A stretch of DNA of 24,908 nucleotides from Nitriliruptoraceae bacterium (GTDB lineage Bacteria > Actinomycetota > Nitriliruptoria > Nitriliruptorales > Nitriliruptoraceae), in the NCBI GenBank assembly GCA_041633895.1, contig JBFJMP010000001.1, forward strand, positions 1-24,908, in the 5' to 3' direction. Shown here in pieces: positions 3-20,663 of the stretch. Positions within the stretch are counted from its first letter, which is position 1, and every line of letters starts with the position of its first letter. Both the position numbers and the translations under genes were made by a program. The notes under the pieces are model-generated. The model saw only the letters and a list, made by a program, of their open reading frames with translations, had not been told where the DNA came from and did not search any database.

Positions 3-548
3 GATCCAGGGTCGTTCACCTTCAGGGCGGCGAAGGACCTCCAGCTTCTGGGGTCATCCATCAACGAGCCGGAGGTGAAGGAGGCCTTCATCAACCTCGA
101 CCTGGCCCACGTCCTGCACTTCGGCGACCACGTCCAGCAGCGCGTGGTCGCCGCGATCGGCACCGACTTCCACGGGGAACTGCTGGTGGGGCAGGCCACC
201 GTCGTGCGCACCGAGGATCCGCGCCAACCCTTCCTGATCGCCGCCCCGACCATGCGCGTCCCGATGCGCCTGCCACCGGACACCGTCAATCCGTACCTCG
301 CGATGCGAGCGGTCCTCCTGGCCGCGGCTCGCCATCCCGAGCCGATCCGGTCGGTCGCCGTCCCCGGCCTGGGCACCGGAGTCGGGCGCATGCCCCCGGC
401 CGTCGCGGCGCATCAGATGGCCAGGGCCGTCCGTCGAGTTCGGCACGGCGCCACCGGACCGCCCCAGACGTGGGACCTCGCCGTCCAGGAGCACGTCATC
501 CTGACAAATCGACAGGGTCCGTCCGTGCCGTCTACGTTCCCCACGTGA
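3..548 (+). CDS. Macro-domain (ADP-ribose-binding/Appr-1-p-processing family) C-terminal portion, 5'-partial; N-terminal segment does not look like macro
   Basis: Frame is open from base 3 to TGA 548 (the ORF track starts at GTG 75). HFGDHVQQRV..GELLVGQA..FLIAAPTMRVPM..TVNPYLAMRAVL..SVAVPGLGTGVG..AHQM matches the macro family, including the GLGTGVG loop. The upstream SPANSxGxMDGG-type motif is absent. Confidence 0.75.
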   Translation, partial: DPGSFTFRAAKDLQLLGSSINEPEVKEAFINLDLAHVLHFGDHVQQRVVAAIGTDFHGELLVGQATVVRTEDPRQPFLIAAPTMRVPMRLPPDTVNPYLAMRAVLLAAARHPEPIRSVAVPGLGTGVGRMPPAVAAHQMARAVRRVRHGATGPPQTWDLAVQEHVILTNRQGPSVPSTFPT

Positions 549-582
549 TCGCGAACGGGCACGCGATCCGCGGGGGCAGACC

Positions 583-2445
583 ATGATCGGGTTCGGACAG
601 GGGCAGGACCGCGCTGAGCGGCTGCTGACGCTGTCGTGCGTCCTGCAGGTCGGGCGTCCGCTGTCACTGCTGGACCTCCGGGAGCGCTTCGGTCTCTACG
701 CCGGCGGCAGCGAGGACGCCTCGCGCCGGAAGTTCGAACGGGACAAGGCCGACCTGCGCGAACTCGGGATCCATGTCGAGTCCATGACCCTGCGCGGCGA
801 GGAGGTCTACCGCCTGCCGACGCGACCGCCGTCCATCGCCATCTCATGGACGCCCGAGGAGGCGCTCGCCCTCGCGGCGCTCGCGGCCGCCGTGGGCGAC
901 GAGGTCACGGGTGGGGCCCTCGCCAAGACGTCGTTCCACACGGGCGACTACCCGGCCGAGTCCTCCGCCGCTCGCATCCGGCTCGACCTCGGCGTGTCCC
1001 CCGCCCTGCTCGACGCCCACGCGCAACGGCGGCGCGTGTCGTTCACCTATCGCAACGCCAAGGGCGAGGTGGCGGAGCGCCTGTTCGAGCCATGGGCCCT
1101 CGCAACGCGTCGCTCACAGTCCTACGTCACCGGGTACGACGTGGTCAGCGACGAGGGTCGGGTCTTCCGGCTCGATCGCATCGTCGGCGAGGTCACCGAC
1201 GTCGGGGAGGCCGTCCACGAGCGTCCAGCGGAGGGACTCGGCCTCCCGTTGGCCCCGCAGGTCCGGGCCACGGTCCACCTGCGCGTCCCCCACGCCCGCC
1301 TCGCCGATGCCCTCGCGATGGGTGCCGAGGTCGTCGAGTCGGACGAGGCCACCGTCGAGGTGCGCCTGACGGACATCCGCGAGGAGTCCGCGATCGGGTG
1401 GGCGCTGCGCCACCTTGCCGACGTCGTGTCCCCCGACCCGATCAGCGACGCGGTCGACGCACGGCGTTCGCGCATCGCGGACGTCCACACGGGACCGCCA
1501 TCGCTCGACCCACTCGACGAGCCCGCGGCCGCCCCGCGGACCCGACGAGCCGGCCTGTCCGAGGAACGGCTCGCGCGGCTCCTCGCGCTCCCGGAATGGC
1601 TGGCCGCGCGGCCCGGCGTCACCGTCGAGGAGGTGGCGACGGCCTTCGGCTGCGACCTGGACGAGGTCAAGGGCGAACTCGAACTGCTGGAGTGGCTGGA
1701 GATCCCGCGCCTCGGGTTCGTGGGCGACCTCACGATCGACGACACCAACGGCCAGGTCGAGTTCCGCACCCACATGAACGCGCCCCGGGCCGACCTGACG
1801 ACCGTGGAGGCCGTGCACCTGCTCTCGCTCGTCACCGCGGCACAGGCCCTGTTGCCCTCCGCGACCTCGTCCGTCCTCGAGTCGGTCGAGAAGCGACTGC
1901 GCGACGTGCTGCCTGACGGCATCGACGCGTGGCACCTCAACGACCTGGCGAACCCCGCGGTCGCCACGTTGCGGGACGTCGTCGGGACGGACGTCGTGGT
2001 GCGCTTCCGCTACCACGGTCGCCGCGACGCGGAAGCGACCGAACGTCGTGCGCGGCCGCTGCAGTTCCAGTTGACCGGTGGGGCGCTGTACCTGTCGGGA
2101 TTCGACGTGGACCGGGGCGGGGTGCGCAGCTTCAGGCTCGAACGGATGTCGGACGTGACCGTCGAGGGCGCCTCCGACGACGACGGCCAGGACGCCACGC
2201 CGATCGAGCCCGACTACGTGGCGGTGGACGACGAGGTCCGCGTGGAACTCCGGTTGTCCTCGCAGGCCACGTGGATCCTCACCCTGGTCGACGCAACCAC
2301 CTGCCGCGACCTCGGCGACGGTGCCGTGCACGCCGTCGTCCACACCGACGTCCCGGACTGGCTGCTGTCACACGTCCGCGCGGCTGGCGGCGAGGCCGAG
2401 GTGCTGCACCCCGACGCGCTCCGGCAGGCCCTCGCCGCACGCTGA
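583..2445 (+). CDS. pafBC: WYL-domain transcriptional regulator, natural PafB-PafC fusion (HTH-WYL-WCX twice), 620 aa
   Basis: PafB-type N-terminus (AERLLTL..RRKFERDKADLRELGI), first WYL (VSFTYR..EPWAL..SYVTGYD..RVFRLDRIVG), PafC-type HTH (ERLARLLALPEWLAARPGVTVEEVATAFG), second WYL (RFRYHG..LYLSGFD..RSFRLERMSD). Confidence 0.88.
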   Translation: MIGFGQGQDRAERLLTLSCVLQVGRPLSLLDLRERFGLYAGGSEDASRRKFERDKADLRELGIHVESMTLRGEEVYRLPTRPPSIAISWTPEEALALAALAAAVGDEVTGGALAKTSFHTGDYPAESSAARIRLDLGVSPALLDAHAQRRRVSFTYRNAKGEVAERLFEPWALATRRSQSYVTGYDVVSDEGRVFRLDRIVGEVTDVGEAVHERPAEGLGLPLAPQVRATVHLRVPHARLADALAMGAEVVESDEATVEVRLTDIREESAIGWALRHLADVVSPDPISDAVDARRSRIADVHTGPPSLDPLDEPAAAPRTRRAGLSEERLARLLALPEWLAARPGVTVEEVATAFGCDLDEVKGELELLEWLEIPRLGFVGDLTIDDTNGQVEFRTHMNAPRADLTTVEAVHLLSLVTAAQALLPSATSSVLESVEKRLRDVLPDGIDAWHLNDLANPAVATLRDVVGTDVVVRFRYHGRRDAEATERRARPLQFQLTGGALYLSGFDVDRGGVRSFRLERMSDVTVEGASDDDGQDATPIEPDYVAVDDEVRVELRLSSQATWILTLVDATTCRDLGDGAVHAVVHTDVPDWLLSHVRAAGGEAEVLHPDALRQALAAR

Positions 2446-3690: not shown

Positions 3691-6000
3691 TCAGCGCCCG
3701 ACCTGCTCCCCGACGCGCTCGGCGGACTCCGAGCCCCCTTCGACATCCAGCGTCGGCAGGACCCGGTCGAGCCACGCGGGCAACCACCAGTTGCGGTCCC
3801 CCAGCAACTCCATGGTCGCCGGCACGAGGAGCATCCGGACGATCGTCGCGTCGAGGAAGATGGCGACGGCCAGGCCCGTACCCATCAACTTCAGGACCCG
3901 GTCGGACTCCAGCAGGAACGAGCCGAAGACCACGACCATGATCGCGGCGGCGGCGGTGATGACCTTCGCCGTCGCGGCCAGGCCGTCCGCGACCGAGGTC
4001 TGGCTGTCACCCGTGAGCCGCCACTCCTCGCGGATGCGGGACAGCAGGAACACCTCGTAGTCCATCGACAGTCCGAAGACGATGGCGAAGAGCATCATGG
4101 GCGCCCACGGTTCGATGGGCGCGGGCTGGACGCCGGTCAGGTCGGACAGCCACCCCCACTGGAACAGCGCGACCACCACGCCGTACGCCGCACCGATGGA
4201 CAGCAGGTTCATCAGCACCGCCTTGAGCGGCACGAGCACCGAGCGGAAGACGAGCAGCAGCAGGACGAACGACAGGATCAGCACGGCCCCGAAGAAGTAG
4301 GGGTAGCGCGACGCAAGGAAGTCGGCGAAGTCCAGGGACACGGCGACCTGCCCCGTGACGTTCACCTCGACGCCGATCTGCTCCTCGATCGGCGGCAACA
4401 CGCTCGTCCGAAGGCGGCCGATCATCTGCTCGGTGTCCAGGTCCTGAGGGCCCGTTGTCGGCACGACCTGCCACAGCACCGCCGCCCCGTCCGGGCTGGT
4501 GACCGGGAACGACGCGAAGGCCACGCCCGGGTCCTGCCCCACCGCGAGGTTCACCTGCTGGAGGGCAGCGCCCGGATCGGTGCCGTCACCCAGTTCGGCG
4601 GTGAGGATGAGCGGCCCGTTGAAGCCCTCGCCGAAGCCCTCGACCAGGAGCTCGTAGGCCTGACGCGTCGAGGTGTCCTCGGCGTAGTTGCTCTCGTCCG
4701 AGAACCCGAGTCGGAGGCCGAGGACCGGAATCGTCATGATCGCCAGCGCGAGGGCTGCCGCGATCGCCGCGGTCCATGGGCGGTGCTGGATGACGCGGCT
4801 CCAGCGGTAGGCGACGGTGTCGCGCCGGTCCGGCTCGGCGCGATGTGGGACCTCCTCGCGCAGCGCGGGCACGAAGAAGCCGGCGATGAGCACGATGGCG
4901 GCGACCGGCATGCCGAGCAGCAGTGGTGTGAACTCCAGACCCACGCCGACGAGGCCCACCGCCACGAAGCCAGCCGCGATCAGGCCGCGCCAGCGTGTGC
5001 GTTCGATGCGTTCCCCAGCCAGGGCGAGCAGGGCGGGCAGCAGGGTCAGGGACGCAAGGATGGTCAGGAAGACCACGGAGGCGGCACCGACGGCGATGCC
5101 GTTGACGAAGCTCACGCCCATCAGCAGCATCCCGAGCAGCGAGATGACGACGGTCATGCCCGCGAAGGTGACCGACCGCCCGGCGGTGTCCACGGCGATC
5201 CCGATCGACTCGCGGGTGTCGTGGCCGGCATGGAGCTGTTCGCGGTAGCGCGTGACGATCAGCAGCGCGTAGTCGATGCCGACGCCCAGGCCGATCATGA
5301 TCCCGAGGAAGGTCGAGGTCTCGGGGATCGTGATGACGTTGCTGACCGCGGTGATCAGCGAGATCCCGATGCCGATCCCGAACAGGGCGACGCCGACCGG
5401 GAGCCCCATCGCCAGGACCGACCCGAAGGCGACGATCAGGATCACGATCGCGAAGCCGAGGCCGATGACCTCGGAGGAGGGTTGCTCGAACTCGGCGAAG
5501 ATGAAGCCGCCGAGTTCGATCTGCAGGCCGGCGAGGTCGGGCGCCGACTCGAGGATGGCGTCGCGGATCACGCCCGCACGGGTGAAGTCGAGGTCGTCGG
5601 GGACCTCGACGGCGGCGAAGGCGATCTGCCCGGCGGCCGGACCGCGGGAGGCGATCTGCTGTCCCGTCGGGTCGTCGTAGGGGCTCTGGACGCGCAGCAC
5701 GTTGTCGAGGGCGGCCACCTCGGCGAACAGCGTCTGCATGGCGGTTCGAACGGCCTCGTCGTCGACGCCCTGCTCGGCGCGGAACACGATCGTGCCGGTC
5801 GTGCCGGTGCCCGCCCCGCCGAAGTGCTCGTCGAGGATGTCGAAGCCGGTACGGGACTCCGAGTCGGGGAGGTTGAACTCGTCGCGGAAGGCGTTGCCGG
5901 CGATGCCGGACAGCGCGCCACTGAAGACCAGGGCCGCGACCCAGATCGCGAGGACTACCGTTCGGCGGTCGTGACAGGCATGACCCAAGCGGGCGAACAC
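3691..6000 (-). CDS. MMPL (RND superfamily) transporter, 769 aa
   Basis: Two repeats of TM plus extracytoplasmic loop plus TM bundle; motifs GLGVGIDYALL and FGLSMDYEVF; C-terminal LVPATMELLGDRNWWLP. Start placed at GTG 6000 after GGGAG (the track extends to 6081). Confidence 0.92.
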   Translation of the reverse strand: MFARLGHACHDRRTVVLAIWVAALVFSGALSGIAGNAFRDEFNLPDSESRTGFDILDEHFGGAGTGTTGTIVFRAEQGVDDEAVRTAMQTLFAEVAALDNVLRVQSPYDDPTGQQIASRGPAAGQIAFAAVEVPDDLDFTRAGVIRDAILESAPDLAGLQIELGGFIFAEFEQPSSEVIGLGFAIVILIVAFGSVLAMGLPVGVALFGIGIGISLITAVSNVITIPETSTFLGIMIGLGVGIDYALLIVTRYREQLHAGHDTRESIGIAVDTAGRSVTFAGMTVVISLLGMLLMGVSFVNGIAVGAASVVFLTILASLTLLPALLALAGERIERTRWRGLIAAGFVAVGLVGVGLEFTPLLLGMPVAAIVLIAGFFVPALREEVPHRAEPDRRDTVAYRWSRVIQHRPWTAAIAAALALAIMTIPVLGLRLGFSDESNYAEDTSTRQAYELLVEGFGEGFNGPLILTAELGDGTDPGAALQQVNLAVGQDPGVAFASFPVTSPDGAAVLWQVVPTTGPQDLDTEQMIGRLRTSVLPPIEEQIGVEVNVTGQVAVSLDFADFLASRYPYFFGAVLILSFVLLLLVFRSVLVPLKAVLMNLLSIGAAYGVVVALFQWGWLSDLTGVQPAPIEPWAPMMLFAIVFGLSMDYEVFLLSRIREEWRLTGDSQTSVADGLAATAKVITAAAAIMVVVFGSFLLESDRVLKLMGTGLAVAIFLDATIVRMLLVPATMELLGDRNWWLPAWLDRVLPTLDVEGGSESAERVGEQVGR

Positions 6001-6138
6001 GGCGCTCCCAACTCGTCCGGCGCGTCCCAAACCGCCGACGTGCCATCCATCATGGGGCCCCGGAGCGTCGCGCGCCACCATCCTGTGCGTTGGACCTCCT
6101 AGGGTCCGTCACGTCGGACGTCGCGGAGGGGTTCAGGA

Positions 6139-7284: not shown

Positions 7285-7292
7285 ACCTCCAC

Positions 7293-7309
7293 CTCAAGTT
7301 CTGCTCAAG
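7293..7309 (+). promoter_or_regulatory. Direct-repeat box A: CTCAAG-N5-CTCAAG (OmpR/PhoB-type operator candidate)
   Basis: Perfect hexamers at 7293 and 7304 (11-bp period) in the intergenic region upstream of the stand-alone receiver; -10-like TACCGT at 7347-7352. Confidence 0.65.
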
Positions 7310-7381: not shown

Positions 7382-7813
7382 GTGACCTCAGCAGGCGACA
7401 ACGCGACCCCGAGGGTCGGACTGCGTGTGCTGGTCGCCGAGGACAGCCCGGTCAACCAGATCCTGCTCACGGACTTCCTCGAACTGCGCGGGCACGAGGT
7501 GATCGTCGCTGACGACGGCGCCGAGGCGGTCCGCCTCGCACTCCAGCAGCGCCCCGACGTCATCCTCATGGACGTCCAGATGCCCCAGATGGACGGACTC
7601 GAGGCGACGCGGCGCATCCGTGCGACCGCGGACGGTGCCCACGTCCCGATCATCGCCGTCACGGCCCTCGCCATGGACGGGGACCGGGACCGCTGCCTGG
7701 CGGCCGGCTGCGACGACCACGTCAGCAAACCGATCGACCTGCCGGCGCTGGCCGACCTGGCGGAGCGCCTCGCCGGCCTCCCCCGATCAGGTGGACTCAG
7801 CGACCCGAAGTGA
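7382..7813 (+). CDS. Single-domain response regulator (CheY/DivK-like), 143 aa
   Basis: VLVAEDS..PDVILMDVQMP.MDG..VTALA..DDHVSKP, with phospho-Asp, Thr and Lys intact. Start codon uncertain because the RBS is weak. Confidence 0.9.
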   Translation: MTSAGDNATPRVGLRVLVAEDSPVNQILLTDFLELRGHEVIVADDGAEAVRLALQQRPDVILMDVQMPQMDGLEATRRIRATADGAHVPIIAVTALAMDGDRDRCLAAGCDDHVSKPIDLPALADLAERLAGLPRSGGLSDPK

Positions 7814-10427
7814 AGACCTCGACGCGGGCCCACTCGTCGATCTGGTCGAACTGGCGGTGCAGGTCCGCGACCGTGGTCGCCGCCTGGTCGAGGTCGTGGC
7901 GACGCGCGGACAGCTCCAGATCGCGGCACGTGTCGGCGAACCCTTCGGCTGCCACGTAGCGGCTGCTCCCGGTCAGGCGGTGGGCGATCTGGGCGACCTG
8001 GGCGGCGTCACGGGCCGCGACGGCCTCGTCGAGCGAGCGCATCAACCCACGCGCGTTGTCCAGGAACAGCAACAGCAGGTCACCCAACAGGTCCGTGTGC
8101 TCGTCGCCGTGGAGGGCGGCGAAGGCCGCCGTGTCGATCGGCCCCGACGGCCGGGCGGATCGACGCTCCGGTGTGGCCGCGGATGTCGTCCCGACGCCCG
8201 CCAGCGTCGTCGCCAGCTCCTCGAGTCGGACCGGCTTGCTGATGTAGCCGTCCATGCCCGCAGCGAGGAAGCGCTCACGATCGCCTTCGAGGGCGTTGGC
8301 CGTCAGCGCGACGATCGGTGGGTGGGCCCCGGGTCCCCACTCCTCGCGGATGAGCTGGGTGGCTGTGAGCCCGTCCATCTCCGGCATGTGCACGTCCATG
8401 AGGACCACGTCGTACGAACGCCGACGCAGCGCCTCGATTCCCTCGATCCCGTTGCCGGCGACGTCGGTCACGTGCCCCAGTCGCTCCAGGAGGTGCATCG
8501 CCACCAACTGGTTCACCGGGTCGTCCTCCACGAGGAGCACCCGCAGCGAACGTGCCTGCCCCGGGGGGAGCGCTGCCACCGTGTCGCCCGACGGCATGAC
8601 GACCTCGGACGCGGTCGAGACCTCGAGGTCGAGGTCGAGGCTGAACGTCGTGCCGCGGCCGACCTCACTGTCGACGTCGATCGCACCGCCGAGCGCGGTC
8701 GCGAGTTGCTGGCAGATGGCAAGGCCCAGTCCGGTGCCGCCGTACTTCCGGGACGTGGAAGCGTCCACCTGCGAGAAGGGTCGGAACAGCCGTGCCAGGC
8801 GGTCACTGGGAATCCCGATGCCGGTGTCGGCGACCTCGAACCGGACGGCCTGACGGTCGGTCGCCGCGCCCAACGCCCGGGCACGGACGACCACGGAACC
8901 GGTCGGGGTGAACTTCAGGCCGTTGGCGATCAGGTTGACGATGATCTGTCGGATGCGCGTCTCGTCGCCCACCAGGCTGGGTGCCACGTCCTCGTCGACC
9001 TCCCACCGCAGGTCGAGCGATCGTGCACCTGCGTCCTCGGCGAACAGGGCGATCGTGTCCCGCAGCAGGGCGCGGACGTCGAACGGACGGCTCTCGAGTT
9101 CGAGCTGGCCCGACTCCATGGCCGAGAAGTTCAGGACGTTGTTGATCAGGCCGAGCAAGAGGTTGCCGCTGTTGCGCGCGGTCTCGGCGTAGTGGCGCTG
9201 CTCGGACGACAGTTGCGTGTCCAGCAGCATGCCTGTCAGGCCGATGACGGCGTTCAGCGGTGTCCGGATCTCGTGGCTCATGCTGGCCAGGAAGTCCGCC
9301 TTCTCACGTGCGGTCTCCTCGGCGGACTCCTTCGCACGACGGAGTTCCTCCTCGTCGCGCTTGCGCTCCGTGATGTCGCGCTCGACGGCGATGAAGTTCG
9401 TGACGGCCCCGGCGTCGTCGAGGACGGGCTGCACCTCGACGGCGACCCAGTACGGCTGGCCCGATCGGGTGTAGTTGAGGATCTCGACGTTGAAGCCGTC
9501 GCCCGCCGTCAGGGCCGCCGCCATCTCCGCCACCACGGCCGGGTCCGAATCGGGCCCCTGGAGGAGTTCTCCGGGCTCCTTGCCGACGGACTCCTCGACC
9601 GTGAACTCGGTGACGCGGGTGAACGCGTCGTTGACCCATTCGATGCGCCCCTGCGCGTCGGTGATGACGACCATGTTGTCGGTGGCGCTGGCCACGAGGC
9701 TCAGCTTGCGGAGGTCACGGTTCAGGGCGACCAAGCGGTTTCCCGCATCGGCCCGCTGGCGGTCGAAGCGACGCCAGCCAAGGAAGGCCAACGCCGAGAA
9801 GACCAGCGACCCGGCCAGCACGACGCCCAGGCCGACCAGCATTCGTCGGGCGTCACCGAGCTGCTCGATCGTTGCGCTGTTGGCCTGGCCGGCGTTGCTC
9901 TTGCGGTTGATCTCGGCGCGGGACGCGAGGTCGTTGAAGCGGAGTTCGAGCCCTTCGAGCAGCAGTGCGACACGGGACGGGTCCGCGTCCGGCGTACCCA
10001 CGACGATGGCGCTGACGGCCGGCTCGATGTCGTCGGTCCAGACCTCGGCCAACTCCTGTGCCTCGTCGAGCAACTCCTGCGAACCGAGGGTCTGGAGCTG
10101 GTAGGGCAGGGACACCTCGCGCATCCGCTGGCCGACGAAGCCGCGATGCAGGTCGAGTTCGGCTCGATCGACGGGCTCCTCGCCGACGATGCTTCGTAGG
10201 CGCAGGATCTCGCGCTGGACCTGGCCGAGCGTGCGCACGTTCGCGTCGACGATGTCCTCGGTGACCGAGACGCTGGTCTCGAGGGCACGCGTCTGCGACC
10301 AGAGGGTCACGCCCAGGAACATGGTGGACCCGAGCAGGAGGACGATGGCGACGACCAACGCCACGCGTGCCCGGCGATCGTCCAGTCGGCCTGACCCGGC
10401 GTCGTCGTGCGGGCGAGGTCCCGGCAT
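7797..10427 (-). CDS. Membrane hybrid sensor histidine kinase: TM-helical extracytoplasmic domain-TM-PAS/PAC-HisKA-HATPase-REC-Hpt, 876 aa
   Basis: Two TM helices; PAS; H-box [14 protein letters not shown]; N-box [14 protein letters not shown]; G1 DTGIGI; G2 GGTGLGLAI; [11 protein letters not shown]; Hpt [11 protein letters not shown] 10427 follows GAGGTGGAG. Confidence 0.93.
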
Positions 10428-10432
10428 GCTCG

Positions 10433-11011
10433 TCACTCCACCTCGATCGAGGCGAGTTGCCAGATCCAACGGGCGTCGTAGATCGTGGCGTCGAGGTCAT
10501 GGGCATCGTAGGGATAGACGACACGGACCGGCCCGAATCGGTCCACAGGCATCCGCTCGCCGTCGACCGAGGTTGCGAGCAGGGCGTCGTACACGACGGC
10601 GTCCTCGATCGGGATGTCGACCGCATAGTCGTTCAGCGCGACGGTGTGCAGCATCGTGGCGTCATCGGCGGCGCCGGTCACGGCGAGCACGTCCGCGAGG
10701 CGGACGCCGCGGAAGGTCACGCGACGGCCTTCTGCCTGGTCGTCGTCGACCTCGAACTCGACCAGCCCCAGGGACTCGAGGGACTCGAGGTCGAAGGCCA
10801 CGACGCCATCCGCACCGGACGTGTCGATGCGACCGGACACGGTCAGGACGGTGTCACCGGTCGGCGCGGGGACGCGGTCGCCGGGTACGAGGCTGGCCTC
10901 GGTCACGACCTCGTAGGCCGCGGGCGCTGGCGCATCGGCGTCTTCGGAGCATGCCGACAACGACAGCGCGGCGGTGGCGATCAGCGCGGCGGCGAGCAGG
11001 GTGCGGTTCAT
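10433..11011 (-). CDS. Lipoprotein with molybdopterin-oxidoreductase (SUOX) fold lacking the Moco cysteine; PruR-like ligand-binding protein, 192 aa
   Basis: ATG 11011 after GAGGA; lipobox LSAC; VLTVSG.I..F.GV.L..VL..ALNDY...IP..LLA..DGE.M....GP..VVYP..WQL..IEV pattern; the lipobox Cys is the only Cys; stop lies 5 bp before the kinase start. Confidence 0.8.
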   Translation of the reverse strand: MNRTLLAAALIATAALSLSACSEDADAPAPAAYEVVTEASLVPGDRVPAPTGDTVLTVSGRIDTSGADGVVAFDLESLESLGLVEFEVDDDQAEGRRVTFRGVRLADVLAVTGAADDATMLHTVALNDYAVDIPIEDAVVYDALLATSVDGERMPVDRFGPVRVVYPYDAHDLDATIYDARWIWQLASIEVE

Positions 11012-11065
11012 CGTGGCTTCCTCGTGGGCAACGAGATCACCGTGCCCGGCCATCCCTGCGCTCCC

Positions 11066-11093
11066 CTCACCCAGACCTCAAGTTCACCTCAAG
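11066..11093 (-). promoter_or_regulatory. Direct-repeat box B: three half-sites CTCACC/CTCAAG/CTCAAG (plus-strand reading), upstream of the lipoprotein-kinase operon
   Basis: Hexamers at 11066, 11077 and 11088 (11-bp period); minus-strand -10-like CACGGT at 11044-11039, 32 nt from the 11077 half-site. Confidence 0.7.
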
Positions 11094-11105: not shown

Positions 11106-12566
11106 TCACCCCAGCTCGGCACTGATCGCGGGCAGTCGCGCCCAGAAGCGCGTTCGTCCGTCGTCGGTCCGCCCCGCCCCGACGGTCCCGCCGGCCTCCT
11201 CGACGAGGTGGCGCGCAAGTGCGAGACCGAGGCCGAGGCCATCGTGCTGACCGGTCAGGTCCGACTGGAAGAATCGTTCGAAGATCCGCTCGGCGTCCTC
11301 CGGCGGGAACCCGTCACCGTCGTCGAGCACGGCGACGAGCAGGTCGTCGCCGTCCAGAGCGATGGTCACGTCGACGTGGTCGCCATGGCTGTGCGCGTTC
11401 CCGACGTACTCGTCGAGCACGGCCCGAAGCGGCGTCTGGCGGACCTGGACGGCGTACGGGAGGTCGATGGTCGCCGCAGCGATCACCGCCTGGGCGTCGT
11501 CGCCGACGAACGAGGCGAGCACGCCGGTGGCGGTGTCGGACGCAAGGCGGACGTCCGCGCGGTCTCGCCCCGCGGCGAGGTCGTCCGCGAACGCGAGGAC
11601 GCGCAGCAGCACGTCGTTGAGGCGGGTTGCCGATCGCACGGCGAGTCCACGCAGCGGCTCGTGGGCCGGGTCGATGTCGATCTGTTCCCACATCGTCATG
11701 GCCCCGCCGAGCCCGGTGAGGGGGGTTCGGACCTTGTGCGTGATGGCGCTGATGACGAGGTCGGACACCCGAGACGCACGCCGCTCGTCGGTGATGTCAC
11801 GGATCACGACGACTCGACGATCGCCGGTCACCGACGCCACCGAGGTCTCGATCGTCCGCAGCCACAGCGGGGCGCCGGTCGGACCCGCGTCCCGGTGCAA
11901 CAGGGCGACACGCTCCTCGTCGGCGGCAGGGGCGGCACCGGACCCCGGGAGCGTCCCCTCGAGGAGGTCGAACCCGACCGCTCCGTCGGCGAAGGTGTCG
12001 CCGATGGAGAGCCCCAGCAGCCGATGCGCTGCAGCGTTGACGTCCAGGCAGCCACCCTGAGGACCCACGACGACCACGCCGTCGCCGATTCGGCCGGTGA
12101 CCGCTTCCAACTCGCGGCGTTCGACCAGGGCCATGCGCGCCCGCGCCAGTCGACTCAGCGACCGGACACGCGCCTTCAGTTCGACGGGGTCGACTGGCTT
12201 GGCCAGCAAGTCGTCGGCGCCTGCCTCGAGCGCGCGGATCCGCGCCTCGCGGTCGCCGGCGGCCGTGAGGAAGACCAGCGGCAGGTGCCGCCACTCGACG
12301 TGGGTACGGACGCGATCACACAGGACGAAGCCGTCGTCACCCGGCATCATGACGTCGGACAGGATCACGTCCGGGCGACCGCCGTCCTCGAGCCACGCGA
12401 CGGCCTCACGCACGGACGTCACGCTGTGGACATCCATGTCGCTGGCCAGCAGATGGCCCTCGACCACGGCGACCGCGACCGGATCGTCGTCCACGACCAG
12501 GACGGTCAACGGGTCCGCCCCGTCGATCAGGTCCAGGGTGGGCTCGGTCATCGTCATGGTGTCCAT
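11106..12566 (-). CDS. Soluble REC-PAS-HisKA-HATPase histidine kinase with atypical H-box, 486 aa
   Basis: N-terminal PleD-like REC (VDDD..ILSDVMMP..FLTA..AKP); PAS-like region; H-box ITHKVRTPLTG; N-box YVGNAHSH; G1 DDGDGF; G2 GLGLGLA. ATG 12566 follows GAGG. Confidence 0.88.
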   Translation of the reverse strand: MDTMTMTEPTLDLIDGADPLTVLVVDDDPVAVAVVEGHLLASDMDVHSVTSVREAVAWLEDGGRPDVILSDVMMPGDDGFVLCDRVRTHVEWRHLPLVFLTAAGDREARIRALEAGADDLLAKPVDPVELKARVRSLSRLARARMALVERRELEAVTGRIGDGVVVVGPQGGCLDVNAAAHRLLGLSIGDTFADGAVGFDLLEGTLPGSGAAPAADEERVALLHRDAGPTGAPLWLRTIETSVASVTGDRRVVVIRDITDERRASRVSDLVISAITHKVRTPLTGLGGAMTMWEQIDIDPAHEPLRGLAVRSATRLNDVLLRVLAFADDLAAGRDRADVRLASDTATGVLASFVGDDAQAVIAAATIDLPYAVQVRQTPLRAVLDEYVGNAHSHGDHVDVTIALDGDDLLVAVLDDGDGFPPEDAERIFERFFQSDLTGQHDGLGLGLALARHLVEEAGGTVGAGRTDDGRTRFWARLPAISAELG

Positions 12567-12652
12567 GCTATGCCTCGCAGGAACGGGAGCGGGGGCTGTC
12601 GGGGTGACTTCTGCACTGTGACGTGCGAGTCCTGCCACGAGGTCGCCGGCAC

Positions 12653-12669
12653 CTCACGATCCCCTCAAG
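12653..12669. promoter_or_regulatory. Direct-repeat box C: CTCACG-N5-CTCAAG in the divergent promoter region between the kinase and the OmpR regulator
   Basis: Hexamers at 12653 and 12664; minus-strand -10-like CACAGT at 12620-12615 (32-nt gap); plus-strand -10-like TACGCT at 12718-12723. Confidence 0.65.
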
Positions 12670-12746
12670 GAGTGCATGGCGTCGCGATTCGTGCCGCTTG
12701 CCGGGAGGCCCGTGGCATACGCTCTCCACGTCGAAGAGGAGTTCCG

Positions 12747-13448
12747 GTGCCGACGAAGTCCGCGACCGTCGTCGTGATCGAGGATGCGCCAGAGATCCGG
12801 ATCCTCCTCGAGGACCTCCTGGCCAACGAGGGGTTCCGCGTCATCGCGACGGACAATGGCGAGGACGGCGTCGACCTGGTCGTCCAGGAGGACGCTGACC
12901 TCGTGGTGCTGGACCTGGTGCTGCCGGGCATCGACGGCTTCGAAGCGTGTCGTCGCATCCGTGAGCAGTCGGATGCCTACGTGGTCATGCTCACCTCGAA
13001 GGATGCCGAGATCGACAAGGTCGTCGGCCTCACCGTGGGCGCCGACGACTACGTGACCAAGCCGTTCTCCCCGCCGGAACTGGTCGCGCGGCTGCGAGCC
13101 ATGCTGCGGAGGCCACGCGCGGATGAGGGCAGCGACAGCCTGCGTCAGCACGGCGACCTCGCGATCGACCCGGATGCCCGCGAGGTGCGCGTCGCCGACC
13201 AACCCGTCGAGCTGACGCGGATCGAGTTCGACCTGTTGGAGGCGTTGACCGACAACCCCCGCCAGGTGAAGACCCGCGAGCAGTTGTTGAACCGCATCTG
13301 GGGACCCGGCTGGGTCGGTGAGGACCACCTCGTCGACGTCCACATGTCGAAGTTGCGTCGCAAGCTCGGCGACGACGCACGCACCCAGCGCTACGTGGTG
13401 ACCGTCCGGGGCGTCGGTTACCGGATGGGCGACCCGGCCGCGATGTAG
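12747..13448 (+). CDS. OmpR/PhoB-family response regulator (REC plus winged helix), 233 aa
   Basis: GTG 12747 after GAGGAG; VIED..VVLDLVLPGIDG..MLTSKD..GADDYVTKPF; wHTH LTRIEFDLL..VDVHMSKLRRKL..TVRGVGY. Confidence 0.95.
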   Translation: MPTKSATVVVIEDAPEIRILLEDLLANEGFRVIATDNGEDGVDLVVQEDADLVVLDLVLPGIDGFEACRRIREQSDAYVVMLTSKDAEIDKVVGLTVGADDYVTKPFSPPELVARLRAMLRRPRADEGSDSLRQHGDLAIDPDAREVRVADQPVELTRIEFDLLEALTDNPRQVKTREQLLNRIWGPGWVGEDHLVDVHMSKLRRKLGDDARTQRYVVTVRGVGYRMGDPAAM

Positions 13449-16111
13449 GCGCGCATGGCGGCGCTGGCCGCAGCCGCGCCGGTCCGCAGTGCGGCCACCC
13501 GTTCGCGGTGTCCGTCAGCGGTCGGGTTGGGTTCTGCCTCGACGGCCGCTGCGGCGTCGCCGAGCGCGGCCGCTCCGAGCGTGCGCGCGCTGCCCTTGAG
13601 CCGATGGGCGGCCTGGCGAACCGCTTCCTCGTCGTCGGACTCGCCGATCGTGGTGACGAGGCCGTCGATGGCCTCGAGGAAGGCGGACACGGCACGCTGG
13701 ACCGGCTCGCTGCGCCCACCCATCTCCTGCGTGAGCGCGCCCAGCGCCGCCGCGATGGACTCGGACACCAGGCGATCCGCCTTGGCCTGCTCGGCGTCCG
13801 TGTCCTCCGCGGTCGGCTCGGTGCGACGGGCCGTGGCGACCGCGACGGCCAGGTCGTCCAGCGCCACCGGCTTCGTGAGGTAGCCGTCCATGCCGGCGTC
13901 CAAGCAGCGTTGGCGGTCCTCAACGGTCGCCGCCGCCGTGAGGGCGATGATCGGCACGTCGCGCTCAGGGCCGGCCAGGCCTCGGATCGTCTCGGCAGCC
14001 TCGGGACCGTCCATCCGGGCGAGGTGGCGGTCCATCAACACCACGTCGATGCCGCCCTCCCGGACCCGCTCCACGGCGAGGTCCCCGTCGACGACCACGG
14101 TGACGTCGTGGCCGATTCGGTCGAGCTGCATGCGCAGGACCGTCCCGACCATCTCGTCGTCCTCGACCACGAGGACGCGACGACGTTCCCCTGGTGCGTC
14201 GGCATCCACCACGTCCGCTCCTGTGTCCACCCCGGCTGCAGCCCTCACGTCCAGCGGGAGGTCGATGACGAACACGGCACCGGACTGCGAGGGCTCCAGG
14301 GCAATCGTGCCACCGAGTTCGACGGCGAGCCGCGAGGTGATCGCCAGACCGAGGCCCGTCCCGCGCACCTGCCGAGGTCGTACCTGGGTGAAGGGCTCGA
14401 AGATGTCGTCACGACGGTCCGCCGGGATCCCCGGCCCGGTGTCCTCCACGCGGAACTGGACGGTGCCCGTCCCGTCGCGCGACGAATCCACGGTGACCTC
14501 GATCCACCCGCTTGGGGTGAACTTCACCGCGTTGCCGATCACGTTGACCAGGATCTGGCGCAGTCGCCGGGCATCGGCGACCACGGACCGCGGGACGCCG
14601 GGAGACACGGTGAGCCGAAGCTCGAGGTCCTTGTCCTGGGCCTCGATCGCGAACAGGCCCAGGGTGTCCTGGGCGATGCCCACCGGGTCGACCCCGTCCT
14701 CGACGAACAGGTCCGCGTGTCCGGACTCCAGCCGTGCGAAGTCCAGCACGCTGTCGACGAGGTGACGCAGCGAGGTCGCCGAGGTCTGCATGACCTGGAG
14801 CAGACGCCGGTGGGCGGGTTCGAGGTCCTCCCCACCGAGCAACTCGACGGCACCGACCAGCGAGTGCAGGGGCGTTCGGAGTTCATGGCTCACGGTGGCG
14901 ACGAACTCGGACTTGAGTTCGGACGCGCGAATGGCGGCGTCGCGGGCCGCCCCGGCCTGGACCTGCACCTCACGACGTCGGGTGATGTCGCGGTACAGCC
15001 AGAGGTGGCCGCGATAGGAGCCGTCGACGTGGACGGGTGTGTAGCTGCGTTCGAGGCAGCGCCCGTCGGCCATCTCGAGCTCCTCGTCCTGGACGGGCAC
15101 GCGCTCGGTGAGGATCTCGTCCACGCGCGCGACGAATCCCCCTGGGTCCGCGAAGAGGTGCTGGGCCTGTTCGGCCGCGCGAGAGCAGTCCTCGCCCTCG
15201 AGTTCGGCCGGGCTCGCGGGGATGCCGAAGAGGTCGGTCATCGCCTCGTTCGTCACGACGATGCGTCGGTCCTCGTCCTCGAGGAGCACGGCGTCGTGCA
15301 TGGACTTGATCAAGCCGGTCAGCCGGGCACTGAGGGTCTGCAAGCTCAGGAGCGAGTCGCGCTCACTCGTGATGTCCGTGAAGGTCGTGACCACCGCGTG
15401 CGGACGGTCGTGCCCGTGGCGCAGGAGCGGCCGCGCGTTGACCCGCAGCCACCGCAGTGTCCCATCCGGACGATGGATGCCCAGGGTCTCCCCCAGGACC
15501 GGTTCGCCCGCGCGCAGTGCCCGCATGGCGGGGTGGTCGTGTCCCGGGAGGTCCTTGCCGGCCATGTCCACGGTGCCCCACCGCGGGTCGTTCGACGAAC
15601 GCCCGTTCATCTGGTCGGCACTCAGGCCGAGGATCCGTTCGGCCGACGCGTTGCAGGCCAGGACCTCGCCGGTGGCCGCCTGTAGCACCACGCCCTGTTC
15701 GAGGGCCGCGACCACGGCCTCGTACCTCTGCTCGAGGTCGCTGCCCGAGGCCCTGTCCACCGGGAGGAAGACCCCGCCCTCCAACGTGATGATCGTCCAC
15801 GGGTGGTCGAGCACGCGGAAGCCGCCGATCGCCGTGGCGCGTTCGGGCGCGTTCGGGTCACGGGCTGGCACCACGAACCGGTCGAGGTCGCTCTCGCCAC
15901 TGCTGGTGACCGCCGCCGCCAGGTCGGGGGCGCCGAGTCGCTCGCTCAGGCGGGTGAGGTCGACACCGACGGCCAGGGCCGGATCGTCGGCTGCCCACTG
16001 CTCCCATCGGGGGTTGACCCGGAGCACATGGCCGTCGTCGTGGACCACGGCGGCCCGTAGGGCGACGTGCGCGAACACGTCGACGGGCCCGGGCTCAGGT
16101 CCTGCATCCAT
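13418..16111 (-). CDS. Soluble hybrid sensor histidine kinase: PAS x3-HisKA-HATPase-REC-Hpt, 897 aa
   Basis: ATG 16111 after GGAG; no TM helix; PAS repeats ending DIT; H-box VSHELRTPLHS; N-box NVIGNAVKFT; G1 DTGPGI; G2 GTGLGLAI; REC VLMDRHL; Hpt AHRLKGSA. Confidence 0.92.
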   Translation of the reverse strand: MDAGPEPGPVDVFAHVALRAAVVHDDGHVLRVNPRWEQWAADDPALAVGVDLTRLSERLGAPDLAAAVTSSGESDLDRFVVPARDPNAPERATAIGGFRVLDHPWTIITLEGGVFLPVDRASGSDLEQRYEAVVAALEQGVVLQAATGEVLACNASAERILGLSADQMNGRSSNDPRWGTVDMAGKDLPGHDHPAMRALRAGEPVLGETLGIHRPDGTLRWLRVNARPLLRHGHDRPHAVVTTFTDITSERDSLLSLQTLSARLTGLIKSMHDAVLLEDEDRRIVVTNEAMTDLFGIPASPAELEGEDCSRAAEQAQHLFADPGGFVARVDEILTERVPVQDEELEMADGRCLERSYTPVHVDGSYRGHLWLYRDITRRREVQVQAGAARDAAIRASELKSEFVATVSHELRTPLHSLVGAVELLGGEDLEPAHRRLLQVMQTSATSLRHLVDSVLDFARLESGHADLFVEDGVDPVGIAQDTLGLFAIEAQDKDLELRLTVSPGVPRSVVADARRLRQILVNVIGNAVKFTPSGWIEVTVDSSRDGTGTVQFRVEDTGPGIPADRRDDIFEPFTQVRPRQVRGTGLGLAITSRLAVELGGTIALEPSQSGAVFVIDLPLDVRAAAGVDTGADVVDADAPGERRRVLVVEDDEMVGTVLRMQLDRIGHDVTVVVDGDLAVERVREGGIDVVLMDRHLARMDGPEAAETIRGLAGPERDVPIIALTAAATVEDRQRCLDAGMDGYLTKPVALDDLAVAVATARRTEPTAEDTDAEQAKADRLVSESIAAALGALTQEMGGRSEPVQRAVSAFLEAIDGLVTTIGESDDEEAVRQAAHRLKGSARTLGAAALGDAAAAVEAEPNPTADGHRERVAALRTGAAAASAAMRAYIAAGSPIR

Positions 16112-16167
16112 GGATTCAACTCCGACGGCACGAACAGTAGGAGGTTGCACGCCGACCCGTCCCGCGT

Positions 16168-16560
16168 TCAGGACCGGCCGTACTGGTCCTCGAACCGTTC
16201 GATGTCGTCCTCGTCGAACGTCCCGAAGGCGATCTCGAGGAAGCGTGCGCGTCGGCCGACGCACGACACGCGGTGTCGGGTTCCGCGCGGGATCCAGATC
16301 TCGTCGCCCTCGGCGGCGCGGATGACCTCGTCGCCGACCTCGGCCACCAGGCCGTCGTCGAGCGCCACCCACAGTTCGTCACGGTGTTCGTGGCGTTGGA
16401 GGCTGAGGCTCTGTCCGGGTTCGACGGTGATCAGCTTGACCGTCGACACCTCGTTGAAGCTGTAGCGGCTGAAGCCTCCCCAGGGGCGGCGATCTGACAC
16501 GACCTCGACGCGTGGGTCGCGGCGTGCATCGAGGACCTGGGTGTGGTTGGTGTTCGTCAT
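16168..16560 (-). CDS. Stand-alone cupin, mannose-6-phosphate isomerase type II C-terminal-like, 130 aa
   Basis: RRPWGGF..VKLITVEPGQSLSLQRHEHRDELWV..IPRGTRHR..FLEI..EDDIERFEDQYGR matches the PMI domain of bifunctional ManC-type proteins. Confidence 0.85.
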   Translation of the reverse strand: MTNTNHTQVLDARRDPRVEVVSDRRPWGGFSRYSFNEVSTVKLITVEPGQSLSLQRHEHRDELWVALDDGLVAEVGDEVIRAAEGDEIWIPRGTRHRVSCVGRRARFLEIAFGTFDEDDIERFEDQYGRS

Positions 16561-16646: not shown

Positions 16647-17819
16647 TCAGACGGTGAGCAGGAAGTCGATGTGCTCCAGGTACCAGTCCGCCACGTCCTC
16701 CATGGGGAGGCCGGCGGCGACGGCGTGGTTGCGCAGCCCCTGCGCCACGCGACGGGTGTCGTCGGACAGCAGGCGGTTGATCGCCGCTGCGAGGGACTCG
16801 GGGTCGGCTGGGTCGAACCACTCGGCGACGTAGCCCTCGGCCTCGACGAGGCGACGGAAGTCACCGATGTCCGGCATGACCAGCGCGCGGGAGTAGCTCG
16901 CAGCCTGATGGACGACGCCGGAGCTGCCGGTCGTCGCGACGTAGGGGAACACGGCGACGGTGGCGTCCCGGAAGACATCCGGGACGTCCTCCTCCGCCAC
17001 GTAGCCCGTGAACCGCACCGGATCCCCGGCGTAGGCGTCGCGGACGCGCTCCAGGTAGCCGGGTGCGTTCGGACTGTCCGTCCCCGCGACGACGACCTCG
17101 ACCGCGTGCTTCGCGGACAGGATGCGCGCGGCGTCGAGCAGGGGCTCGACCTGCTTGTACGTCCCGAACTTCCCGAAGGCCATGAGCTGCGCCGGGCCCG
17201 GAGGCACCGACGTGTCGGACTCCAGCGGCACGTCGAAGGTCCCGTGGGGGATCACCGCGACGTTGTCCGCCCCGTACTTCTCACGCAGGACGGTGACGTA
17301 CTGCGGCATGGTGACCGCGACGAGGTCCGCCTTGAGCACGAGCCAGGTCACGATCGTCCCTGCGAGCCGGATGATCCGTTCCACGAGGCGGCTGGTGCCG
17401 AAGCCCGCGCCCTCGAGGTCGATCGTCTCCATGATGTTGTGCAGGAGGACGACGCTGCGGGTGCCGGTCCCGCGGACCAGCAGGGGTGCGAGCAGTCCGA
17501 GTGCGGCGGCGACCCGGCGGTCACCGAAGGTCGCGAACTGGACGTTGAAGATGGCGACGTCCACGTCCTCGCGGACCACGGCCCGGCGGATCCGCCACGC
17601 GCTCCGCAGGGAGTTGAACCTCCAGCAGTCGACGAAGCGCGTGTGCGGCAGGTCGGGGTAGTGCTCGCCGTCCGGGAGGGTGTCGCCGAAGACGACCACC
17701 TCGTCGACCTCCTCCTTGAGGGCGAGCGAGCGGACCAGGTGCAGGCCGTACTCGTTGAGGGTCCCCGTGGACGGGGGGTGCGGCGTGATGACGCCGATGC
17801 GAAGGTTCGTGTCATGCAT
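16647..17819 (-). CDS. Glycosyltransferase family 4 (GT-B), 390 aa
   Basis: GTLNEYG..VAVIPHG..FGKFGTYK..FTGYVAEEDV..VFPY.ATTGSSGVV; overlaps the upstream GT2 stop (ATGCATGA). Confidence 0.9.
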   Translation of the reverse strand: MHDTNLRIGVITPHPPSTGTLNEYGLHLVRSLALKEEVDEVVVFGDTLPDGEHYPDLPHTRFVDCWRFNSLRSAWRIRRAVVREDVDVAIFNVQFATFGDRRVAAALGLLAPLLVRGTGTRSVVLLHNIMETIDLEGAGFGTSRLVERIIRLAGTIVTWLVLKADLVAVTMPQYVTVLREKYGADNVAVIPHGTFDVPLESDTSVPPGPAQLMAFGKFGTYKQVEPLLDAARILSAKHAVEVVVAGTDSPNAPGYLERVRDAYAGDPVRFTGYVAEEDVPDVFRDATVAVFPYVATTGSSGVVHQAASYSRALVMPDIGDFRRLVEAEGYVAEWFDPADPESLAAAINRLLSDDTRRVAQGLRNHAVAAGLPMEDVADWYLEHIDFLLTV

Positions 17820-18591
17820 GTGCGTACACCCCTTGGGCGTCGTTGCGGCGGATGACGCGGAGGTCGCGCAGGAAGCGCACCACCTCGCGTGAGGTGTCCA
17901 CCTTCGACCCGGGTGCGTCGATCCATTCGACCGGCACCTCGGCGACCTCCATGCCCAGGCGGGCCGCGAGGTAGAGCACCTCGAGGTCGAAGGAGAAGCC
18001 CTCGATCGTCTGGGCGGCGAACAGCCGCTGGGCGGCCGCTCGGGTGAACAGCTTGAAGCCGCACTGCGTGTCGGACAGGTCCAGACGCATGGCGCGCCGG
18101 ATCAGGGCACGGCTGGTGGCGCTGACGAGGCGTCGCGCGGCCGAGCGGTTGGCCTCGGTGGCGCCGTCGGCGGCGCGCGAGCCCACCGCGACGTCGAAGC
18201 CCTCGTCGAGGGCTGCCATCAGTCGGTCGAGTTCCTCGATGGGTGTCGACTGGTCGGCGTCGGCGAACAGGACGCGGTCGCCCCGTGCGGCGAGCATGCC
18301 ACGGCGGACGGCGTCGCCCTTGCCCGTGTTCGCCTCGGCGGACAGCACGCGGACGTTCGCCAGGCCCAACCGGTGGACGCGGTCGACGGTGTCGTCAGAC
18401 GATCCGTCGTCGGAGACGAGCAACTCCCACGGTCGGCCGTCACAGACATGGGCCGCGATGGCTCCGATCGTCGGGACGATCCGATCGCGCTCGTTGTACG
18501 CGGGGACGACCACCGACAGGACGGGATGGTCGACGGGTTCGCGTTGCCAACGCTCGAAGGCGTCGAGGACACCTGGCGTGTCGCTGTACAT
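17812..18591 (-). CDS. Glycosyltransferase family 2, polyprenyl/dolichyl-phosphate hexosyltransferase-like, 259 aa
   Basis: SVVVPAYNE..VSDDGSSD..NTGKGDAVRRG..FADAD..VGSR..DTQCGFKLF..FSFDLE..EVPVEW. Confidence 0.9.
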   Translation of the reverse strand: MYSDTPGVLDAFERWQREPVDHPVLSVVVPAYNERDRIVPTIGAIAAHVCDGRPWELLVSDDGSSDDTVDRVHRLGLANVRVLSAEANTGKGDAVRRGMLAARGDRVLFADADQSTPIEELDRLMAALDEGFDVAVGSRAADGATEANRSAARRLVSATSRALIRRAMRLDLSDTQCGFKLFTRAAAQRLFAAQTIEGFSFDLEVLYLAARLGMEVAEVPVEWIDAPGSKVDTSREVVRFLRDLRVIRRNDAQGVYAHA

Positions 18592-20625: not shown

Positions 20626-20663
20626 CTCAAGGTCCTCTGACCGAACCTCAACGACGCCTCAAG
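20626..20663 (-). promoter_or_regulatory. Direct-repeat box D: CTCAAG/CTGACC/CTCAAC/CTCAAG (plus-strand reading), upstream of the STAS-flippase-GT operon
   Basis: Half-sites at 20626, 20637, 20647 and 20658 (spacings 11, 10, 11); minus-strand -10-like TAGCGT at 20593-20588, 32 nt from the 20626 half-site; partly overlaps the GH stop at 20648. Confidence 0.65.

Follow-up and report, generated by a model that had tools for sequence, protein, structure and literature searches.

The window analysed here is a stretch of 24,908 nucleotides (nt) with a guanine-plus-cytosine content of ~70%, taken from a Nitriliruptoraceae bacterium (contig JBFJMP010000001.1 of assembly GCA_041633895.1, positions 1 to 24,908). 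It carries on its minus strand a pair of adjacent genes which encode a small lipoprotein and a hybrid histidine kinase, and it is this pair, together with the output it may control, that is described below. The features which define the pair are as follows, with the residues of the lipoprotein aligned to those of PruR from Agrobacterium tumefaciens.

10433..11011, minus strand: predicted PruR-family lipoprotein of 192 amino acids (translation; PF00174 at 5.4e-11; phmmer against the PDB; AlphaFold2; Foldseek)
7797..10427, minus strand: putative DTB-type hybrid histidine kinase of 876 amino acids, with first transmembrane segment, helical sensor, second transmembrane segment, PAS, HisKA, HATPase_c, REC and Hpt (Pfam)
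9840..10298, minus strand: predicted helical extracytoplasmic sensor domain, kinase residues ~44-196 (hhalign; AlphaFold2)
10949..10951, minus strand: codon of the lipobox Cys21 (translation)
10625..10633, minus strand: codons N127-D128-Y129, aligned with A. tumefaciens N102 and Y104 (ALNDY)
10460..10462, minus strand: codon W184, aligned with A. tumefaciens W160
10733..10741, minus strand: codons D91-Q92-A93, in the place of P69-W70 (alignment of DDDQAEG with TTPWHDG)
10209..10235, minus strand: sensor R65-x3-Q69-x3-E73, in the place of the motif WX7E (profile alignment)

The stop codon of the lipoprotein gene (TGA, 10433..10435) is separated by a 5-nt gap from the ATG of the kinase gene at 10427. 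This ATG, in line with the N-termini of homologues, is probably the start of the kinase, and the TTG at 10469 listed for the same open reading frame probably is not. On the 5' side of the lipoprotein ATG at 11011 lies a GAGGAAG Shine-Dalgarno-like sequence; the alternative ATG at 11053, from which an acidic N-terminal extension would result, is the less likely start. The sequence-only reading of this locus had described a lipoprotein whose only Cys is that of the lipobox, 5 nt upstream of a hybrid kinase with two transmembrane segments. Both genes are present as described according to open reading frames, translations and Pfam, and all the protein strings quoted in that reading were found.

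Fold and pocket residues of the lipoprotein

The N-terminus of the lipoprotein, MNRTLLAAALIATAALSLSA followed by C, is a standard lipoprotein signal peptide with the lipobox L-S-A-C, and Cys21 of this lipobox is the sole Cys among the 192 residues. The signal peptide is followed by a linker of ~25 amino acids and by the PruR domain at residues ~45-192, in which Oxidored_molyb (PF00174) is recognised by Pfam. When all PDB chains were searched with phmmer, the A. tumefaciens PruR structures 7kos/7kou (‘Pterin Binding Protein’) were matched with an expectation value (E) of 1.2e-25 between residues 47-192 and 6-149, with an identity of 40%, followed by Klebsiella PruR 7rkb (1.7e-22) and two Vibrio PruRs (1e-8 to 1e-9); catalytic enzymes came in only from 3e-4. 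An AlphaFold2 model with 46 homologues in the input had a predicted local distance difference test (pLDDT) value of 92. Its seven best Foldseek matches are all PruR structures, and the five from Klebsiella and Agrobacterium (7rkb, 7kos, 7kou) superpose with template modelling (TM) scores of 0.91-0.95 on target length and root-mean-square deviations of 1.3-1.5 Å over 147-149 residues.

In A. tumefaciens PruR the pterin ring is sandwiched by Y104 and W160 and hydrogen-bonded by N102, as demonstrated by co-crystal structures and mutagenesis (PMC11194511). Y104, W160 and N102 align with Y129, W184 and N127 of the lipoprotein. Within a 46-sequence alignment the columns of N127, D128 and Y129 are near-invariant and that of W184 is invariant, and NDY is kept in 62/66 members of the clade of close relatives to which the lipoprotein belongs, hereafter the window-type clade. 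The motif P69-W70, or ‘PW’, is conserved in most PruR homologues, and W70 occupies the site of the Mo-ligand Cys of SUOX enzymes but is absent from the residues reported to contact the ligand (PMC11194511). A TPW segment named in the sequence-only reading corresponds to this published motif, for which that reading had noted a different sequence in the present protein. At the PW site Q-A recurs in at least 49/66 close relatives of the window-type clade, so the replacement is a trait of the clade and not decay. By its sequence, its modelled fold and its pocket residues, the lipoprotein is a PruR-family protein, and the earlier assignment to the PruR-type binders is upheld.

It can hardly be credited that the lipoprotein is instead a small catalytic molybdoenzyme of the cell surface, similar to YedY/MsrP or sulfite oxidase. 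The idea is suggested by the Pfam name Oxidored_molyb and by the relatives, which are annotated in databases as molybdopterin-dependent oxidoreductases. The core fold of the molybdenum cofactor (Moco) domain is common to the lipoprotein and the SUOX molybdoenzymes (sulfite oxidase, SorA, YedY/MsrP), with Foldseek E of 1e-4 to 1e-7. However, the TM scores of sulfite oxidases, SorA and YedY against the lipoprotein model are 0.24-0.42 on their own length, thus never above 0.42 for a catalytic SUOX enzyme, and NCBIfam models of sulfite dehydrogenase reach 10-15 bits where their cut-offs are 420-600. The SUOX domain of ~150 amino acids has a truncated hairpin, as in PruR, and is without the extended hairpin, the deep cofactor cleft and the dimerisation domain of the molybdoenzymes. 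A Mo ligand is also lacking, because the sole Cys is the lipobox Cys predicted to be acylated.

The mode of export distinguishes the lipoprotein from proteobacterial PruR, which has a signal-peptidase-I signal in place of the lipobox signal. A lipobox is present in 63/66 relatives of the window-type clade compared with 5/36 relatives of the proteobacterial type, in agreement with the lipid-tethered binder that had been proposed from the sequence.

Sensor domain of the kinase and conservation of the pair

In the kinase, Pfam places PAS at residues 245-357, HisKA at 376-440, HATPase_c at 487-602, REC at 630-742 and Hpt at 783-866. The best partial matches in NCBIfam are BarA and TorS, both under the cut-off (for TorS, 395.6 bits versus 676.5). 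Two transmembrane segments, at residues ~22-43 and ~197-220 and with Arg-rich flanks on the cytoplasmic side, enclose an extracytoplasmic part of ~153 amino acids, close to the ~150 residues estimated earlier; the DcpA-type domain measures ~138-150 amino acids in PMC11194511 and ~190 as drawn in the review PMC13259868. The AlphaFold2 model of kinase residues 1-235 (pLDDT 82.8) is all-helical, with four to five helices, as had also been anticipated. Neither GGDEF nor EAL was detected on the kinase by Pfam, so the GGDEF/EAL partner by which PruR-DcpA is defined is missing.

The relationship of the sensor to that of DcpA was analysed by profile comparison. The window-type sensor profile comprised 36 representatives from an exhaustive hidden Markov model search of 1.84 billion cluster representatives, which found 72 clusters at E<=1e-3 (a word-index search with the sensor region gave 8 matches), and the proteobacterial profile comprised 10 sensors, each encoded just downstream of a PruR gene. 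Over full length the two profiles were aligned by hhalign with a Prob of 94.4%, E of 8.5e-8 and a score of 56 over 164 columns, compared with E>=0.02 and scores <=22 for the controls, which were one column-reversed and 20 column-shuffled profiles. A second actinobacterial sensor type, found on GGDEF-EAL proteins, aligned with the window type at 96% and E 1.9e-9, and with the proteobacterial type at 25% and E 7.6e-4. By this comparison the kinase sensor is a remote homologue of the DcpA/DTB periplasmic domain. Identities among the sensors of Alphaproteobacteria are just 21-29%, which indicates fast divergence.

The motif WX7E takes the form W-x3-Q-x3-E in the proteobacterial sensors (W in 9/10, Q in 8/10, E in 10/10), and its counterpart in the window clade is R65-x3-Q69-x3-E73 (R in 34/36, Q in 31/36, E in 32/36). 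The segment W43-x6-E50 was considered as WX7E and ruled out; W43 directly follows the first transmembrane segment and is not conserved among close homologues. One sensor, P0173, has Trp at the R65 position. The 47 proteins with a window-type sensor carry HATPase_c in 44/47 cases, REC in 27/47, Hpt in 5/47 and GGDEF in 0/47.

The loci with a window-type pair are L021, L022, L036, L037, L038, L039, L053 (Phycicoccus sp. HDW14) and L054 (a metagenome-assembled genome, MAG, of Ilumatobacteraceae). In every window-type relative examined, a PruR-like lipoprotein gene with PF00174 (~200 amino acids) immediately precedes the gene of a kinase that carries the same sensor. The pair is thus conserved, and the two genes overlap by 4 nt (L036, L039) or are separated by <=24 nt, compared with 5 nt in the window. 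The wider neighbourhood varies among these relatives, which span several actinobacterial families. The contig of P0125 starts 230 nt before the kinase gene and is uninformative on the pair. It is very improbable that the two proteins are neighbours without direct signalling, the lipoprotein having a surface role of its own and the kinase sensing otherwise through its helical bundle or PAS domain. The cytoplasmic PAS domain could indeed take a separate input, but the pair is tightly coupled or overlapping and its order is kept while its surroundings change. Furthermore, the same order is found in 11/11 complete proteobacterial loci, and cross-linking of PruR with DcpA in A. tumefaciens has been published (PMC11194511).

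The related-locus search of genome contigs yielded three alphaproteobacterial loci only, and the actinobacterial relatives came from other genome and encoding-contig searches. The named relatives are all Actinomycetota, namely Terrabacter, Phycicoccus, the Ilumatobacteraceae MAG and ‘Actinomycetes bacterium’ MAGs. A PruR-like gene was present at E<=1e-10 in 17/401 sampled genomes of the same phylum, with a patchy spread: 1/19 genomes of the window's own family and 11/21 of another family. A second actinobacterial PruR clade consists of lipoproteins without exception (120/120) and has EPF for PW, DDY for NDY, and WIWS. In 7/7 of its loci the next gene encodes a protein with two transmembrane segments and (PAS)-GGDEF-EAL, which is the DcpA architecture, so that DcpA-type partners in Actinomycetota go with this other clade. 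The seven loci are L023, L025-L029 and L031, from genomes G021, G254, G140, G150, G122, G069 and G036. This clade is abundant, with hundreds of near-identical environmental copies. Genome G327, from the window's family, encodes two PruR-like lipoproteins, one of the window type (L021) and one (L030) that groups with the other actinobacterial clade, where it forms a long branch. Three separate clades appear in the maximum-likelihood tree, namely the window type (26 rows, support 91/87), the proteobacterial type (100/96) and the actinobacterial type linked to GGDEF-EAL (100/99). Of the latter two, the proteobacterial clade is nearer to the window type, in a tree which is unrooted and from which no direction of transfer can be read. 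Regarding the pairing of the PruR Trp with the sensor Trp, L052 adds a further case of W with W, in a comparison of three clades with three states only that is not statistically meaningful.

Comparison with published systems places the pair closest to PruR-DTB, in which PruR is combined with a TorS/BaeS-like kinase whose periplasmic domain is of the DcpA type and which often also contains PAS and REC (PMC11194511; PMC13259868). Such systems make up 23-29% of 5,595 pairs, all from Alpha-, Beta-, Gamma- and Deltaproteobacteria (Greenwich et al., PNAS 2024, PMC11194511), and Ruegeria pomeroyi is given as an example in the 2026 review PMC13259868. Relatives in Bosea and Microvirga, located by a back-translated pattern scan, have PruR, a PAS kinase with two transmembrane segments and a LuxR-type regulator, and are thus of this type. 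The present pair shares with PruR-DTB a Cys-less exported PruR (the lipobox Cys aside) directly upstream of a PAS-HisKA-HATPase-REC protein with two transmembrane segments and a DcpA-type extracytoplasmic domain, and response-regulator genes nearby. It differs in its phylum, Actinomycetota where the published cases are Proteobacteria; in having a lipoprotein where PruR is otherwise soluble in the periplasm; in D-Q for PW70 and R-x7-E for WX7E; and in a kinase ending in Hpt, as do 5/47 of its sensor family. With A. tumefaciens PruR-DcpA (Atu3496-Atu3495; PMC4488946, PMC11194511) it shares a homologous binder (40%, E=1e-25) in which N102, Y104 and W160 are kept, the gene order, the two-segment topology of the partner and a helical sensor of ~150 amino acids, whereas the output there is GGDEF-EAL, acting on cyclic di-GMP (c-di-GMP), and here a phosphorelay. 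TorT-TorS, which senses trimethylamine N-oxide in Escherichia coli, is similar in that an extracytoplasmic binder controls a two-transmembrane H1-D1-H2 hybrid kinase with a helical sensor; however, TorT has a periplasmic-binding-protein fold unrelated to PruR, and no similarity between the sensor domains was detected.

The switch of output to a phosphorelay, which the sequence-only reading had proposed, had therefore already been published in 2024 as PruR-DTB (PMC11194511). The kind of system is a known one, and the present case is an extension of known biology with no new principle. What is unreported, as far as could be found, is the occurrence in Actinomycetota, in both kinase and GGDEF-EAL pairings, the lipid anchor, and the joint loss of two hallmark Trp residues. 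Actinomycetota, Gram-positives and lipoproteins are not mentioned in the text of PMC11194511 (its dataset S1 aside) or of PMC13259868, and a full-text literature search for PruR returned nothing further.

Candidate output of the relay and the surrounding locus

The neighbouring genes and repeats that bear on the output of the pair are the following.

11064..11093, minus strand: three tandem CTTGAGG-like heptamers, candidate response-regulator site (sequence; pattern count)
12651..12669, minus strand: second CTTGAGG-N4 box, in the divergent region between the REC-kinase and OmpR-type regulator genes (pattern count)
20645-20663, minus strand: CTTGAGG-N4 repeat at the head of the STAS-glycan operon
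7291-7309, minus strand: CTTGAGG-N4 repeat between the hydrolase and single-REC genes
~12741..13448, plus strand: OmpR-family response regulator, start approximate (Pfam REC and Trans_reg_C)
7382..7813, plus strand: single-domain receiver protein (Response_reg 1.2e-28)
11106..12638, minus strand: REC-(PAS-like)-HisKA-like-HATPase protein, start uncertain, directly upstream of the lipoprotein gene on the same strand
13418..16372, minus strand: hybrid kinase 2 (convergent with the OmpR-type regulator gene)
16647..18101: GT1 gene (homologue in L021 by identity)

The OmpR-family regulator at ~12741..13448 is the best candidate for the terminal output. Its gene is divergent from the string formed by the REC-kinase, lipoprotein and kinase genes, and the protein shares 57% identity with the regulator next to the PruR pair of Phycicoccus sp. 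HDW14 (L053) and 51% with that of the L039 cluster; an orthologue adjoins the pair in three genomes. In Phycicoccus sp. HDW14 the parts of the relay are encoded separately, as regulator, stand-alone Hpt, PruR and kinase-REC. In the window the regulator gene is masked by longer antisense and out-of-frame open reading frames of the high-GC DNA, and its 3' end overlaps the stop region of hybrid kinase 2. The single-REC gene is convergent with the kinase gene and overlaps its 3' end by 17 nt.

The CTTGAGG-like heptamers, which repeat every 11 bp, occupy the stretch 53-82 nt upstream of the lipoprotein ATG. The pattern CTTGAGG-N4-CTTGAGG was matched 5 times within the window, in each case on the minus strand, compared with 0.06 expected, and the box is also found upstream of the pruR-like gene in L021, L022, L036 and L038, and in degenerate form in L039. 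OmpR/PhoB-family sites have this layout, with repeats of seven bases spaced by four. The DNA targets of the relay are likely these tandem CTTGAGG-N4 repeats; which regulator binds them, and which genes it controls, is inferred. A scan for consensus promoters and terminators in the window gave nothing useful.

The homologue of GT1 in L021, from the same family, lies directly upstream of the pruR-like gene with 65% identity. In L021 it adjoins that gene without the two extra signalling genes present in the window. The link to a glycan locus drawn in the sequence-only reading finds a counterpart in the shared repeat box and in this synteny in one same-family genome, and not in the wider neighbourhood, which is not conserved; the evidence is suggestive only. 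A REC-EAL protein adjoins the pair in L054 and L039, and some relays of the window type probably feed c-di-GMP turnover, a possibility left open in PMC11194511. At L054:4463-9448 the PruR-like gene and its Hpt-containing hybrid kinase are immediately preceded by the REC-EAL gene. In a metagenomic relative (L039:750-11037) a signalling cluster of ten kilobases surrounds the PruR-kinase pair, comprising an OmpR-type regulator, an Hpt hybrid kinase, H-NOX (HNOB) with its own kinase, GAF-HisKA-REC and REC-EAL. This content suggests that nitric oxide or haem and pterin-type inputs converge there on c-di-GMP.

Elsewhere in the window, two features typical of Actinomycetota were observed: at 505-2445 (plus strand) a single chain with two WYL domains, HTH_PafC and WCX (PafBC-like), and at 3691-6081 (minus strand) an MMPL-family transporter.

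Proposed mechanism, ligand and significance

Judged as a whole, the pair is probably an actinobacterial, lipid-anchored co-sensor system of the PruR-DTB type. In the mechanism proposed, the lipoprotein would be exported, acylated at Cys21 and held on the outer face of the membrane by its linker of ~25 residues. The probable ligand of the truncated, Cys-less SUOX-type domain is a small unconjugated pterin or a bicyclic heterocycle closely related to one, which would be held between Y129 and W184 and hydrogen-bonded by N127, in the manner of the solved PruR structures. Subsequently, the ligand-loaded lipoprotein would dock on the helical sensor of the adjacent kinase, where the helix R65-x3-Q69-x3-E73 takes the place of WX7E, and docking may shift the balance between kinase and phosphatase activity. 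The phosphoryl group would then move from HisKA by way of the internal REC and the C-terminal Hpt to separate receivers, among which the OmpR-type regulator may act on the CTTGAGG-N4 repeats at the lipoprotein-kinase operon, at the divergent promoter region of the regulator and at the STAS-headed glycan operon. The identity of the ligand, the physical docking and the direction of control are inferred.

A number of observations weigh against this reading. Regarding the sensor, its relatedness to DcpA, claimed in the sequence-only reading, stood at the profile level and was not matched by other comparisons. When hhalign was limited to the periplasmic parts, the result fell to 63% and E 6.8e-5, with E 0.17 for the reversed control; pairwise BLAST against the sensor of the PruR-linked kinase of Bosea caraganae found no similarity; and Foldseek of the sensor model against the PDB gave nothing below E 0.05, only generic four-helix bundles (NarX, KinB, Adeh_2942, chemoreceptors), with no DcpA sensor chain among the PDB matches. 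The sensor has Arg for the Trp of WX7E that is reported as invariant, and the lipoprotein has D91-Q92 in the loop DDDQAEG for PW, so ligand or docking may differ. The CTTGAGG-N4 box is missing on the 5' side of the pair in L037, L053 and L054. Bench evidence of control by PruR is limited to PruR-DcpA of A. tumefaciens, with the DTB-type class outside it. No pterin-branch gene (PruA-like reductase, FolX, PTPS) was found near the actinobacterial loci of this analysis. Furthermore, a monoderm cell is without an enclosed periplasm that could shield pterins, which are oxygen-labile when fully reduced.

Several of these points concern the ligand, and it is conceivable, though unlikely, that the same co-sensor logic serves a ligand other than a pterin of the monapterin/neopterin type, such as lumazine, a fragment of a flavin or of folate, a cofactor of the molybdopterin type or a breakdown product of such a cofactor, with the D-Q-A-E-G loop as part of a retuned pocket. 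The clade-conserved loop in the place of PW, with QA in at least 49/66 relatives, and the absence of pterin-branch genes around the loci are in its favour. However, the three residues in contact with the pterin ring are kept, W70 is not among the reported ligand contacts, and the 40% identity to A. tumefaciens PruR is accompanied by an almost superposable fold. An Rfam scan of the window matched no family and thus no Moco riboswitch, and none of the retrieved pairs (L036-L039, L053, L054) had a metal transporter beside it. The genome of the window has two copies of FolE and one of FolB. The two GTP cyclohydrolase I genes are carried by contigs C248 and C338 (L051, L050); one FolE is in the usual hpt-ftsH-folE setting, and the second is beside a ferredoxin-reductase-type flavoprotein, an enoyl-CoA hydratase and a MarR-like gene, with no clue to a pterin branch. 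A pterin or close relative bound by a lipid-anchored PruR remains the preferred assignment.

A more specific proposal is put forward tentatively, and with rather more doubt than conviction. The two Trp residues may have changed together in the kinase lineage, PW70 to the acidic D-Q-A-E loop and the Trp of WX7E to Arg, as compensatory changes at the docking surface, and the relay may drive the OmpR-type regulator onto repeats which head a surface-glycan operon. If the Trp changes are compensatory, the interface between PruR and the sensor would be formed by the truncated hairpin against the WX7E helix, with an aromatic contact rebuilt as a salt bridge.

Pterin control by PruR has been shown at the bench in Agrobacterium only, and genome surveys report it from Proteobacteria only, in which the enclosed periplasm can hold an excreted, oxygen-labile pterin. 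The presence in Actinomycetota of lipoprotein homologues of PruR, paired with kinases and with GGDEF-EAL proteins, implies that the module is wider and can work on an open cell surface, and a lipid anchor suits a cell without an enclosed periplasm. This raises the question of which ligand, and which of its redox forms, is read at such a surface. Moreover, the window-type clade supplies natural variants at two ‘invariant’ tryptophans, from which the docking surface can be guessed in a testable way. Carriers in culture are available in Phycicoccus and Terrabacter, and the compact relay of Phycicoccus sp. HDW14 (CP049935.1, region 1,347,794-1,362,411) offers a simple setting for the study of the kinase-output class.

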